Source of the DNA: Candidatus Hermodarchaeota archaeon
GTDB lineage: Archaea; Asgardarchaeota; Hermodarchaeia; Hermodarchaeales; Hermodarchaeaceae
DNA length: 24,628 nt
Direction: 5' to 3'
Assembly: GCA_016840065.1 (NCBI GenBank)
Contig: JAEOTB010000082.1
Span: 1 to 24,628, forward strand
The position numbers and the translations under genes are program-made. Positions within the stretch are counted from its first letter, which is position 1, and every line of letters begins with the position of its first letter. The notes beneath the pieces are model-generated. The model was not told where the DNA came from, made no database searches, and was given only the letters and a program-made list of their open reading frames with translations. Shown one piece after another: positions 6,399 through 11,090 of the stretch.

Positions 6399-6414
6399 TA
6401 ACGCGACTTAACGC
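6399..6414. promoter_or_regulatory. TAACGC-N4-TAACGC phased direct repeat
   Basis: The same hexamer pair with the same 10-bp period occurs at 10493-10508. Confidence 0.45.
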
Positions 6415-7851: not shown

Positions 7852-8673
7852 CTAGATAACGCTAGCATAAACGATGTGCTCTTTGTAGGGAACTACATCG
7901 ATGTGCCGCTCATCGGTCTTCAGCTCTTCCATGAATACCGTCATAGCTTGGGCTACATCTTCTGGAAGCATAGCCTTCCGTTCACCCCTTAGTGCTTCAG
8001 GAACATAGCTATCACGGAGCAGGCGCATACCCGACTCACAAAAACTTGTATTATCTCCGAAGTATTCGAAGCCACTCACGGCACCATTGATGATTACTAT
8101 CATGCCGACCTGGTGTTGCCAAGGTTCAAAGTTAGCGACAAAGCGTTCGAAGTCGGCACCAAGGGCTTGATAGATGGCACCAAGGGCCTCCGAACGGGAT
8201 TCCACACCCCACTCTTCCAGATATTGTTCAATAAGTTTCCAAATCTCTTCTTGCTTCTTTTCCTCAAGAACTGCTCGCCGAATAGTTAGGGGGATATCAG
8301 AAAGCGTCCATTCCTTTCCACTACGGCGCCAGCGTTGGTGCTCAATGCAGTATACATTGATTGTTCTCCTACGACCAGAGATTACTTGGCTCTTCTTCAC
8401 GATACGGTCCTGCCTTCCCCCAGCTAGCAACCCCTCACAGGCACGAAGCAACACAGGCTCCTTAGGCTCAAAGAGCAACCCGGTATATTGACCTACATCG
8501 TGGATTTCCACTTTTTCTTGGGCTAGGGCTTGACGGAGGGAGAGGATAGGCTGCTCTTGTGGTGCAGCCTTGTCGAGCAGGCCGATAACCGCGATGTTAC
8601 CCACGAGCTGGGGCTCAGCGAATGTGGTCGATTGGATTAAGCTGAGAATCTCAGCGCCATTGCTTTCAGTCAT
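7852..8673 (-). CDS. ARPP/DUF6569-like protein
   Basis: LSLRQAL...VEIHDVG, PVLL...E..LAGGRQDRIV, INVYCIEHQRW, QEEIW, QVGMIVIING...EYF and LLRDSY match the ARPP-1/DUF6569 pattern as I recall it. Overlaps the upstream gene by 8 nt. Confidence 0.7.
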   Translation of the reverse strand: MTESNGAEILSLIQSTTFAEPQLVGNIAVIGLLDKAAPQEQPILSLRQALAQEKVEIHDVGQYTGLLFEPKEPVLLRACEGLLAGGRQDRIVKKSQVISGRRRTINVYCIEHQRWRRSGKEWTLSDIPLTIRRAVLEEKKQEEIWKLIEQYLEEWGVESRSEALGAIYQALGADFERFVANFEPWQHQVGMIVIINGAVSGFEYFGDNTSFCESGMRLLRDSYVPEALRGERKAMLPEDVAQAMTVFMEELKTDERHIDVVPYKEHIVYASVI

Positions 8674-10111
8674 TTTTTATCACCTCAAGGATGTGCCCAA
8701 GGAACCGTAAGCCCCGCAGCGGAAGGAAGATTTCATTCTCTGCTCCGAGACGGGTGGCGGCTTCAGGTTCCAGTGGATTAATTGTGGGGTTCAATGTCAG
8801 GATGGTGGTCTCCTTCATCTTCTCAGCCACGAGCTTTTCATGACCTCGGTACGGGATGTTTGACTGACCATCCGTAATAAGGATTAGCCATCTGGGTTTG
8901 AGCTTGGCTACTGCTTCTAGACCTCGGGATAAACTGGTGGGGTTGTAAGCCTCGTTTGTCCCAAAGGTTTCAGCAATCCCTTCTACACCTTCACATTTGG
9001 GTACCTCTTCGATGACGTCTCTGATTAGGAAGGTCGGTATACCCTGGGAAACAGCAACAAGCGCTGCCAGCTCCCAGATTACACGTGTGAGCGCGTTGGT
9101 CTTGGTTAGCATCATGCTGCGGCTGGCGTCACAGAGTACAACGCTGTCCTGTGGGAAAGTGATGGGGGTGTGTTCGAGGCAGGTTTGGAAGGGTTTCCTC
9201 AGTGCTTCAGCTAGATCGGGGTGTTGGAGAATTACACTGCCTAACTCAGCAGGGTCGAAGAAAGTCGCTGCCCGCTCCATCCGCTGCAGCCACAGGTTTC
9301 GGTGACTATCCAAGAAGCCACAACGCCGCATTGCATCAGTACGCCTAAGCACCTCATAGTTCGTCATCTTGTCAAAGGCTGCCTCATAGAACGGCAGGGA
9401 TGTGGTATCCAGTACTCCTGAGGCAAACCCCTCCAGGGTTCTAAAGGGAAGCCTGCTCTGCTGGACGTCTTCTATTGTCAAGGATTTAATGATAGCCTTA
9501 AGCTGAATCCTTACAAAGTCATCAAGGAAAGAGCGGGTCTGCTCATCTTCCACCTGCTCGAGGTGCCCTTTACGTTTGAAGAGAAGCCCTGCAGCAAGAT
9601 GGCCTAGATCACCCTTGAACTTGGTGTGGGCACGGTAGCAAACTGCCCTCCATGGCTTCCGGGTTTTAGTAAACCAGAGGGCGACAGTTCGAAGCCCCCG
9701 CTTTTCAGCGATGTGCTTGAGAAATCGCCATACGAAGTTTCGCCCACGCCGGCCTAAGCTAGTACGCTGGAGACCTAGTTCCTTGTGAAAATCGAGGATG
9801 TTCAGCCAGAAAGTTGGCATGTGGTCTGGTCGTGCCTGCTCAAGGAGATTGGTAACATCTTGTCCTTGATCGAAGAGATAGATGGCACAAAGCACCTTGT
9901 GGGAACTAAGCATGACAGGGAGAACCCGCTCAATGTATTCTTGGTATCTTGGGTCACCCTTGTAGCGGCGGTGCACCTCTGCAGCAACACCGACTGTCTG
10001 GTCCTGCGAGAAGTAGTACTGCGGACGAAAGGTGTTAATCGTCACAGTAGTGAGGAAATCGATGGGCACCACGATTTCGGTGCGCTGTTGCAGAGCCTTC
10101 ATTTTGTTCAT
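8666..10111 (-). CDS. Ro60/Rsr-like TROVE + vWA domain protein
   Basis: C-terminal vWA MIDAS (LCDASRSM, PTSL, LITDGQSN). The helical N-terminus has Ro60-like segments: SLGRRGRNFVWRFL (cf. WGRALRKAV), ALWFTKTRKPWRAVCYRAHTK (cf. KY...DLLRLSHxK), LPFRTLEG and MTNYEVLRRTDAMRRCG (cf. MPLTALLRNLGKM). Confidence 0.75.
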   Translation of the reverse strand: MNKMKALQQRTEIVVPIDFLTTVTINTFRPQYYFSQDQTVGVAAEVHRRYKGDPRYQEYIERVLPVMLSSHKVLCAIYLFDQGQDVTNLLEQARPDHMPTFWLNILDFHKELGLQRTSLGRRGRNFVWRFLKHIAEKRGLRTVALWFTKTRKPWRAVCYRAHTKFKGDLGHLAAGLLFKRKGHLEQVEDEQTRSFLDDFVRIQLKAIIKSLTIEDVQQSRLPFRTLEGFASGVLDTTSLPFYEAAFDKMTNYEVLRRTDAMRRCGFLDSHRNLWLQRMERAATFFDPAELGSVILQHPDLAEALRKPFQTCLEHTPITFPQDSVVLCDASRSMMLTKTNALTRVIWELAALVAVSQGIPTFLIRDVIEEVPKCEGVEGIAETFGTNEAYNPTSLSRGLEAVAKLKPRWLILITDGQSNIPYRGHEKLVAEKMKETTILTLNPTINPLEPEAATRLGAENEIFLPLRGLRFLGHILEVIKND

Positions 10112-10245
10112 GGGGATCGCCTACAGGATTAATCGGAGCCAACACACCCATGGGGGCTTGTATACCTAACTAGGTGTGTCTATCCGTTTTCGAAGTTTTC
10201 AATCTTGTACTTGAAATCAATTCGGTGTTTTTTGATCGCCCCATG
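10109..10245 (-). ncRNA. Structured 5' leader or second RNA unit upstream of the TROVE gene
   Basis: Nested inverted repeats: CATGGGG (10109-10115) with CCCCATG (10239-10245); CGGA 10134-10137 with TCCG 10183-10186; AACACACC 10141-10148 with GGTGTGTC 10173-10180; TTTCAA with TTGAAA (10197-10216). No ORF. Confidence 0.4.
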
Positions 10246-10257
10246 TTAATATTCAAA

Positions 10258-10340
10258 GATAGGGTACAGCAGGGGCAAAATGGGAATCCATCCCAATCAT
10301 TGATCAAGGGAACATCGTAATGCCCCTAATTCGACCCTTC
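10258..10340 (-). ncRNA. Candidate Y-RNA-like RNA
   Basis: 5'-AGGGU-CGAAUU-AGGGGCA...UGCCCCU-GCUGU-ACCCU-3'. The 5' and 3' ends pair, with GUCGAA on the 5' strand. Internal hairpin UGGGA-UGGAU-UCCCA. Starts ~25 nt downstream of a TATA box and lies upstream of a TROVE gene. Confidence 0.55.
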
Positions 10341-10351
10341 ACAAGGCAGAA

Positions 10352-10372
10352 AAGAAAACGAGTTTATAAGCT
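10352..10372. promoter_or_regulatory. Bidirectional BRE/TATA promoter
   Basis: AAGAAAACGAG-TTTATAAG on the plus strand and CTTATAAA on the minus strand. Structured elements begin ~25 nt away on both sides (10391 and 10340). Confidence 0.6.
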
Positions 10373-10390
10373 TAATGGAAATAAAGAGGC

Positions 10391-10526
10391 GCGGGAACAG
10401 GAGAGGCATCTACGCCCGGGGGCGTCTTCTCACGACAGGGATTTCCCTGTAGCCTCTGCTCGTCGCAGAGGTTTGAAGCCTATTACGTAACTTAACGCAT
10501 TGTAACGCCTAACAAACGTCCCGCCA
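10391..10526 (+). ncRNA. Candidate ~135-nt multi-hairpin ncRNA of unknown family
   Basis: Closing stem GCGGGA (10391-10396) with TCCCGC (10519-10524). Hairpins at 10401-10431, 10435-10450 (ACAGGG-attt-CCCTGT) and 10451-10473 (AGCCTCTGC-tcgtc-GCAGAGGTT). A TATA box lies at canonical distance. Confidence 0.5.
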
Positions 10527-10658
10527 CTTTGGGAAATGAAAACTCGCTAATAAAAGAGTTACGCAGGTAAGGGCACAGGGGGGTTTGACCGCGTATCCTA
10601 AAGGGTTGAGATTTTAGTAAAAGCCAAATAATGTTAGATATGTGGTTGATTGATTGTC

Positions 10659-11090
10659 ATGTCGGGTCGGATTGTCCCTTGTGTGGGTGCTGTGATTCTT
10701 GATGACGCTGGAAAAGTGCTTCTAGTCAAACATGTCCCTGAGAAAGGTGGGTTCTGGGCGGGTAAATACATCTGTCCGGGTGGACGGTTAGAGTATGGTG
10801 AATTATTGGAGGCAGGTGTCCGAAGGGAAGTCTTAGAAGAGACAGGACTCGAAATCGATATCCTGCGGTGGTTGCCACCCATGGAACGGATAATATTGAC
10901 GCCCGAAGGCATCATTGAGGATCACGTACTCTATCTAGATGCGGTAGCGCGAGTCAGGAGTGGAACATTCGTCCCCCAATCCGATGTGGGTGAGGGTCGA
11001 TGGGTTGACATTAAGAAACTGCCAGAGCTGTTAGAAGAAATCCACGAAGATACCGCTACCCTACTGCGGCAAGCAGGTATGCTTCCCTAA
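10659..11090 (+). CDS. NUDIX hydrolase
   Basis: Nudix box PGGRLEYGELLEAGVRREVLEETGL. Confidence 0.92.
   Translation: MSGRIVPCVGAVILDDAGKVLLVKHVPEKGGFWAGKYICPGGRLEYGELLEAGVRREVLEETGLEIDILRWLPPMERIILTPEGIIEDHVLYLDAVARVRSGTFVPQSDVGEGRWVDIKKLPELLEEIHEDTATLLRQAGMLP

Follow-up and report, generated by a model that had tools for sequence, protein, structure and literature searches.

The window analyzed here (24,628 nt; positions 1 to 24,628 of contig JAEOTB010000082.1, assembly GCA_016840065.1, from a Candidatus Hermodarchaeota archaeon) carries on its minus strand a gene for a protein with a predicted Ro60-like fold, an ARPP-1 gene that overlaps the end of this gene, and, upstream of the pair, an array of small RNA-like elements. 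The element considered here (element C) lies ~280 nt from the Ro60-like start codon, with one complete element in between, and is most likely the third unit of a tandem array, counting outward from the Ro60-like gene. The features are listed below. The handle refers to the predicted paired ends of an element and the cargo to the sequence inside them; R1 and R2 are covariance models (see the section on the RNA family), and the congener is the congeneric genome whose orthologous locus is recorded as JAEOSX010000133.

7852 to 8673, minus strand: ARPP-1 gene (PF20208; Pfam E = 2.5e-41), overlapping the end of the Ro60-like gene
8666 to 10111, minus strand: gene for a 481-aa protein with a predicted Ro60/TROVE-vWA fold (AF2 model and Foldseek)
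10257 to 10343, minus strand: element B, the next Y-like RNA of the array (R1, 48.9 bits; R2, 30.9 bits)
10363 to 10369, either strand: near-palindromic TATA box, placed on the plus strand in an earlier note; on the minus strand, it also precedes element B by the distance typical of the family
10378 to 10387, minus strand: T-rich tract CTCTTTATTT just past the 3' end of element C, a candidate weak archaeal terminator
10391 to 10527, minus strand: element C, a predicted Y-RNA-like small RNA gene of ~137 nt (the covariance-model match spans 10388 to 10528)
10391 to 10399, minus strand: handle helix 1, 3' strand, UG-U-UCCCGC, with a bulged U
10404 to 10410, minus strand: handle helix 2, 3' strand, GAUGCCU, with two G·U pairs that are A·C mismatches on the plus strand
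10412 to 10425, minus strand: cargo hairpin with a 5-bp stem; the congener has a C(UUCG)G tetraloop and one pair changed from A-U to C-G
10435 to 10450, minus strand: cargo hairpin with a 6-bp stem (ACAGGG/CCCUGU) and a 4-nt loop; the terminal A-U is G·U in the congener (A·C on the plus strand)
10453 to 10471, minus strand: cargo hairpin with a 7-bp stem (CCUCUGC/GCAGAGG) and a 5-nt loop; stem identical and loop changed in the congener
10498 to 10505, minus strand: YACNANG motif (UUACAAUG) after the 5' strand of helix 2, present in 21 of 22 family members
10504 to 10510, minus strand: handle helix 2, 5' strand, AGGCGUU; 6 of the 7 helix-2 pairs have compensatory changes across the family
10517 to 10524, minus strand: handle helix 1, 5' strand, GCGGGA then CG, holding the GNCG core (GACGUUUG)
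10548 to 10563, minus strand: candidate promoter of element C, CGTAACTC then TTTTATTA, ~20 nt upstream of the predicted RNA 5' end

Fold and conservation of element C

The earlier note on this DNA had described a divergent RNA with a GCGGGA/UCCCGC closing stem, three GC-rich hairpins, and a UAAC-rich tract. Inspection of the sequence bore out the closing stem (GCGGGA at 10391 to 10396 pairs with TCCCGC at 10520 to 10525), the three hairpins (10412 to 10425, 10435 to 10450, and 10453 to 10471), and the TTTATAA box at 10363 to 10369, which is conserved in the congener. The first of the hairpins is present, but its proposed lower stem (GAGAGG/CUUCUC) competes with a long-range helix that is conserved across the family. 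Likewise, four TAAC units do occur within 10489 to 10513, but none of the four is kept in the congener and the tract is not conserved; a UAAC-rich sponge tract was therefore discarded. The pattern TAACGC-N4-TAACGC is found twice in the window (6399 to 6414 and 10493 to 10508), compared with an expectation of 0.03. Its two copies have no wider flank similarity, and the copy at 10493 to 10508 is not conserved in the congener; on these grounds, we rejected the repeat as a function of element C.

The folding energy of element C was modestly better than that of shuffled sequences on both strands (136-nt stretch, z = -2.98 on the plus strand and -3.02 on the minus strand; 141-nt stretch, z = -2.0 and -2.8, respectively), and energy did not separate the strands. 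The minus-strand minimum free energy (MFE) structure was identical to the centroid and reproduced exactly the architecture of the RNA family described below, i.e., helix 1, the bulged U, a C-G and a G·U pair, an internal loop, helix 2, and a multibranched cargo. This cargo (87 nt, 10411 to 10497, inside the handle) comprises one weak and three strong GC-rich hairpins, and the three strong hairpins were stable in every prediction. RNAalifold, using the two orthologues, preferred a different pairing of the inner part, in competition with helix 2; because there is one orthologue of the C-type cargo, two sequences underlie the inner cargo architecture. A bulge-helix-bulge processing stem was considered for the handle and rejected on inspection, as the internal loop is roughly symmetric and does not consist of two staggered 3-nt bulges.

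Element C is single copy in its own genome (2.59 Mb, 84% complete) and is therefore not a MITE or other repeat, which the earlier note had considered. A DNA homology search of 60 relatives, of the kind proposed in that note, found element C conserved in one congeneric genome only. The two orthologues are 79% identical, compared with 78 to 81% for the flanking coding genes, and the spacers on both sides of the element gave no alignment with the congener. Differences occurred at 6 of 66 core paired positions versus 25 of 75 unpaired positions (Fisher p = 5e-4), i.e., substitutions in element C avoid stems, and one hairpin pair was changed on both sides (A-U to C-G). Against more distant loci, element C gave no blastn match; only a structure-aware model linked them.

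Comparison with the congener also bears on the reading that element C is part of a gene for a small basic protein, encoded by a plus-strand ORF at 10320 to 10490 (56 aa; 52 aa in the congener). The frame is open in both genomes, which have a KEAREQER...SARRRG stretch in common. However, homologous DNA is read in different frames over the N-terminal third, and the TATA box lies inside the ORF. Within the shared frame, differences by codon position numbered 6/5/7 (15/12/67 in the NUDIX gene used as a control), and the changed codons included 3 synonymous and 9 nonsynonymous changes (54 versus 21 in the control). We regard a coding origin of element C as extremely improbable.

An RNA family upstream of Ro60-like genes

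The 481-aa protein encoded next to the array had no match in Pfam or NCBIfam, and a sequence search of the PDB returned noise only. We built an AlphaFold model of this protein from 17 homologues (pLDDT, 83) and searched it against the PDB with Foldseek. The top 13 matches were all Ro60, Rsr, or TROVE structures, matched over the full length (E = 6e-8 to 2e-5), at 13 to 15% identity with the solved Ro60 structures. The DxSxS MIDAS motif is invariant in the protein family. On the basis of the model, we conclude that the protein has a Ro60/TROVE-vWA fold that sequence profiles miss. The scans for this protein gave at least one locus in genomes and at least five loci in metagenomes, and its 16 detectable homologues are all on metagenomic or MAG contigs. 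IMG/VR contained no relative of the protein, and the single match to the handle pattern in IMG/VR sits in a phage coding region and fails the covariance model.

Wherever the sequence downstream of the Ro60-like gene is annotated (loci including L033 and L035 to L040), it holds an ARPP-1 gene, either directly adjacent to the Ro60-like gene or with one or two small ORFs in between. In the paper that defines ARPP, pairing with a Ro60-like gene is not among the gene contexts given for ARPP, and TROVE is not mentioned (PMC9503650). Extra copies of ARPP-1 occur at two loci (L037 and L038). The neighbors of the module at other loci (L035, L039, and L038) include a TBP gene and tRNA-Met, a thymidylate-kinase-like gene, PDDEXK, Band_7, and many small ORFs; given these very different neighbors, the module consisting of the Ro60-like gene, ARPP-1, and the Y-like RNAs may travel on mobile elements. 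One contig (L039) has a run of N at ~1767 to 1865 with the same promoter-proximal sequence duplicated on both sides, which is probably a scaffolding gap across a repeat.

The regions upstream of the homologues were compared in one orientation, read on the strand of the protein gene (protein strand). Loci with upstream DNA carried one to three tandem modules with ends matching those of element C. The co-occurrence with the TROVE gene that the earlier note had proposed as a check was thus found, i.e., the RNA family lies upstream of every Ro60-like homologue having upstream DNA, with the exception of one locus (L038), where a PDDEXK_3 gene abuts the Ro60-like gene and the sole, weak RNA match is ~2 kb upstream. 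The 5' part of a module reads GGGRCGA, then RGGGC, then YUACAAYG, and the 3' part reads GCCCY, then UGUYCCC. In an unguided MAFFT alignment of 15 modules, the handle is made of two helices (15 pairs). It was 93.7% paired (slid controls, 57% or less), with 44 double-change cells (16 ± 3 in shuffles) and a covariation score of 0.497 (0.163 in shuffles). The R1 model found 22 modules, all 22 on the protein strand, and the handle statistics of the 22-member alignment were the same as those with 15 modules. The C-G pair and the adjacent G·U pair that follow the bulged U were invariant in 22 of 22 members.

R1 scored element C at 57.1 bits. Because circularity had to be avoided, a second model (R2) was built from 16 modules of other loci only, leaving out element C and its orthologue, and was searched with filters off. 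R2 matched the minus strand of the window at 10388 to 10528 (23.9 bits; E = 2.5e-4) and scored the orthologue in the congener at 30.1 bits on the protein strand; on the plus strand of the window, neither model had a match at E below 5. Element C has all of the family marks (the two-helix handle, the bulged U, the invariant C-G and G·U pairs, and YACNANG) and is upstream of the Ro60-like/ARPP-1 pair on the same strand. Element C belongs to an RNA family, defined by a GGGRCGA...UGUYCCC handle, that is absent from Rfam.

Database searches agreed with the judgment of the earlier note that the RNA is not a tRNA, 5S, SRP, RNase P, or C/D sRNA: element C had no match in Rfam 15 at gathering scores, and at E up to 10 it had chance-level matches only (CRISPR-DR10, E = 0.24; a human lncRNA, E = 0.45). 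In the genome of element C itself, elements C and B were the sole R1 matches. Among 151 genomes sampled from the phylum, R1 had a match in only two, solely beside the Ro60-like gene, and these were exactly the two of the 151 in which the Ro60-like protein was found. Given that they are close relatives, the two genomes count as one independent observation, to which the metagenomic loci are additional.

In several sister elements, the handle holds a tRNA-like cargo. Rfam tRNA matches above the gathering score were found within modules at three loci (56.6, 43.1, and 35.2 bits in the elements listed below, in that order), all on the protein strand, and the ARAGORN calls in sister elements agreed with them, also on the protein strand. 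The calls were for ordinary tRNAs (Thr-GGU, Phe-GAA, and others).

L036, 2188 to 2306, protein strand: tRNA-carrying sister element
L035, 3009 to 3141, protein strand: tRNA-carrying sister element
L037, 3805 to 3938, protein strand: tRNA-carrying sister element

The tRNA-like cargo joins the handle by its acceptor end via a conserved UACAACG. A T arm and a tRNA were detected in sister elements of other loci; in element C, ARAGORN called no tRNA, and no T arm was detected.

The array extends on both sides of elements B and C. The congener has a fourth Y-like element (element D) upstream of element C (L027, 2458 to 2533; R1, 24.8 bits; R2, 22.5 bits). In the window (10566 to 10640, minus strand), only the 3' arm of element D, CCCCCCUGUGCCC, remains; the 5' arm was apparently lost through a deletion of ~20 nt, and the array thus appears to be decaying at its distal end. 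At the proximal end, the leader next to the Ro60-like start codon (10112 to 10256, minus strand) starts with GGGGCGAUC and ends with GCGAUCCCCAUG; these ends suggest a degenerate handle, with the Ro60-like AUG inside its 3' arm. A 57-nt block within this leader is 89% identical in the congener, and neither covariance model reported the leader.

The state of element D raises the question of whether element C is itself a decaying, nonfunctional paralogue of the Y-like elements. Its motif deviates (GACGUU), its cargo is not tRNA-like, and the next element outward is clearly decayed in this genome. On the other hand, its identity with the congener equals that of the coding genes, its substitutions avoid stems (p = 5e-4) and include one compensatory pair, and its promoter block is conserved, which makes decay very unlikely.

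Strand and transcription of element C

Element C is most likely encoded on the minus strand, the strand of the Ro60-like protein. This placement is favored by the family homology, by the orientation of the tRNA cargo, and by the conserved TATA ~20 nt upstream. Read on the protein strand, the handle alignment contains 40 G·U cells versus 5 A·C cells, and on the other strand the invariant G·U pair would turn into a mismatch in every member. The minus strand is favored also because the C(UUCG)G tetraloop of the congener and the terminal hairpin pair kept as G·U exist on this strand only, and because a T-rich tract lies behind the 3' end on this strand. The divergent RNA of the earlier note is thus a real, conserved, structured RNA gene, but one that most likely stands in tandem with the TROVE gene rather than divergent from it.

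The earlier placement, a stand-alone plus-strand RNA (10391 to 10526) starting ~21 nt after TTTATAA and containing three hairpins and a single-stranded UAAC tract, has several points in its favor. The TATA box is at a suitable distance, and the stretch upstream of it (10363 to 10369) is A-rich on the plus strand, resembling the BRE-like stretches of the family promoters; the fold has a z score of -2 to -3; and the helix GAGAGG/CUUCUC, which only the plus strand can form, persists in the congener, where a G-C pair has become G·U. However, neither covariance model matches this strand at E below 5, A·C mismatches would replace the invariant handle G·U as well as the two G·U pairs of helix 2, and the tRNA-like modules of homologous elements are oriented on the other strand. 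In addition, 0 of 4 TAAC units are conserved, and the plus-strand MFE structure of the congener takes the long-range helix 2 and not the local stem. We therefore consider a stand-alone plus-strand RNA quite unlikely; some plus-strand (antisense) transcription across element C may nevertheless occur.

Another plus-strand reading is that the NUDIX gene downstream has element C as its 5' leader, as the earlier note also proposed, or as a riboregulator. NUDIX is the next gene on the plus strand in both congeneric genomes, but no NUDIX gene lies beside the RNA family at other loci, so the co-occurrence suggested as a check is absent; the evidence for the minus strand counts against this reading as well. 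Moreover, a conserved AAAAGCCAAATARTG block is located ~25 nt before the NUDIX ATG (the block is within 10620 to 10661, and the ATG is at 10659), which suggests a leaderless NUDIX mRNA with its own promoter. A NUDIX leader is accordingly highly improbable. The TTG at 10650 in the ORF listing is probably not the real NUDIX start.

On the minus strand, element C probably has its own promoter, with a conserved TATA at 10548 to 10555. The congener matches CGTAACTCTTTTAT at all 14 bases, and the spacing to the RNA is that of the TATA boxes that precede the first elements of other arrays: first-in-array modules have a TATA-like box ~20 to 24 nt upstream on the protein strand in every case. Arrays elsewhere also contain features that would fit a cis-acting leader segment of the Ro60-like/ARPP-1 operon transcript, e.g., an autoregulatory decoy, a reading that overlaps with the one we prefer. 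In several loci, internal elements have no TATA box of their own, and the last element ends 10 to 20 nt before the start codon or overlaps it; Y RNAs of Salmonella lie within the rsr operon (10.1101/312249); and the T-rich tract behind element C is short. A cis-acting leader is disfavored by the conserved TATA-like block of element C itself, by the T-rich tract and further TATA behind the element, and by the ~280 nt, with a complete element, that separate it from the start codon. We thus consider a role solely as a leader unlikely. A separate small RNA is the reading we retain, and transcription may continue past it through the downstream elements into the gene.

Proposed function and comparison with known Ro60-Y RNA systems

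Taken together, these results make it fairly probable that 10391 to 10527 on the minus strand encodes a small noncoding RNA of the Y RNA kind, in a tandem array upstream of a cryptic Ro60-like gene and ARPP-1. Of the roles proposed in the earlier note, a partner RNA of the TROVE protein is the favored option, on account of the Ro60 fold of the neighboring protein and the family co-occurrence, but not in its plus-strand placement. The 5' and 3' ends of element C would pair to form the two-helix handle. By analogy with the Ro60-Y RNA particles of bacteria and animals, the handle would dock on the Ro60-like ring via the GNCG motif of its 5' strand, and the cargo may then gate the ring or tether it to another factor. 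Given the tRNA-like cargo of sister elements, a single ring would have several alternative cargos available to it from the array. Against the Y RNA reading, element C and its orthologue depart from the motif (GACGUU, not GNCGAA) and have a longer internal loop.

A more specific version of this reading is that element C is an independently transcribed archaeal Y RNA whose four-hairpin, non-tRNA cargo recruits a target or effector different from those of the tRNA mimics of its sisters, the array providing several interchangeable specificities for one Ro60-like ring that works with the ARPP-1 enzyme. We hold this version only tentatively and think it possible rather than likely. If true, it would mean a modular "one handle, many cargos" system of RNA surveillance or conflict in Asgard archaea, of which the papers and RNA libraries that we searched contain no description.

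Work on Ro60-Y RNA particles has dealt with animals, bacteria, and phages. The locus described here yields a covarying, strand-resolved RNA family, for which Rfam has no detecting model, tied to a Ro60-fold protein that sequence profiles miss, as well as a new conserved pairing of a Ro60-like gene with ARPP-1. Its array combines the same handle with tRNA-like or unrelated cargos, which is relevant to the programming of Ro60 rings by RNA and to the role of ARPP-1. For annotation, element C belongs on the minus strand, most likely, and in the Ro60-like locus rather than with the NUDIX gene. In the phylum, occurrence is patchy (2 of 151 genomes), a pattern that speaks for a mobile accessory system and against an ancestor of the eukaryotic Ro particle.

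In the literature that we searched, we found no description of an archaeal Y RNA. Ro60/TROVE genes have been reported in Asgard viruses (Nidhogg; 10.1101/2021.07.29.454249) and in Borgs (PMC11208441); no RNA partner was described there, and the authors suggest a Y RNA partner by analogy (10.1101/2021.07.29.454249; PMC11208441). Those systems are similar to ours in that TROVE-vWA proteins are encoded in archaeal or archaea-associated genomes. They differ in that the protein described here escapes the Pfam TROVE model and was found only on archaeal MAG or metagenome contigs, with none in IMG/VR.

Y RNAs are generally built of a terminal stem with the binding site and a variable effector module (10.1101/312249). 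Element C shares two traits of this class: its ends pair into a long stem, and a Ro60-fold gene is nearby. Its predicted length of ~137 nt compares with ~80 to 130 nt for Y RNAs. The motif on the 5' strand of the handle can be compared with known Ro60 contacts, since the bacterial contact motif GNCGAAN0-1G is similar to GGUCCGA, with which Xenopus Ro60 makes contact (PMC4201824). In 22 of 22 family members, GNCG stands at one and the same place in the handle; GNCGA occurs in 18 of 22, and the full GNCGAAN0-1G in 6 of 22. As a sequence, the GNCG(A) of the family thus resembles both the bacterial GNCGAAN0-1G and the vertebrate GGUCCGA contact motifs, while GACGUUUG of element C keeps GNCG alone and neither full Ro60-contact motif (GGUCCGA or GNCGAAN0-1G).

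The metazoan Y_RNA model (RF00019) did not match element C. Metazoan Y RNAs are nevertheless of a similar size class and have a terminal stem with bulged nucleotides and a 5'-strand motif (GGUCCGA, versus GGGACG here), and the metazoan protein is likewise a Ro60 ring with a vWA/MIDAS domain. The RNA described here differs from them in that the bulge is on the 3' strand and no 3' oligo-U/La-type end can be defined.

For bacteria and phages, the comparison set consists of YrlA, YrlB, and Yrn1, which are bound by Rsr/Ro60 (RF02553; PMC4201824; 10.1101/312249). The YrlA model (RF02553; gathering score, 69 bits) had no match on either strand of positions 10050 to 10700 at E up to 10, and the single subthreshold match in the family (34.6 versus 69 bits) was on the tRNA-like cargo and not on the handle. 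Further differences from YrlA are the element C motif, which is not GNCGAAN0-1G, and its cargo, which has no tRNA features. In the YrlA RNA, the Ro60 stem stands in place of the anticodon stem (10.1101/312249), and the tRNA-like domain is circularly permuted, whereas the tRNA parts of the sister elements are nonpermuted and joined by the acceptor, i.e., the topology is opposite. The host here is an Asgard archaeon, and the partner is ARPP-1, in contrast to RtcB/RtcA in the bacterial systems. The features in common with the bacterial and phage Y RNAs are a small RNA gene beside a Ro60-fold gene, with several of them in tandem; paired ends with a conserved purine-rich 5'-strand motif containing GNCG(A); and a modular design in which a handle holds a variable cargo, which in the sister elements of this family is tRNA-like.
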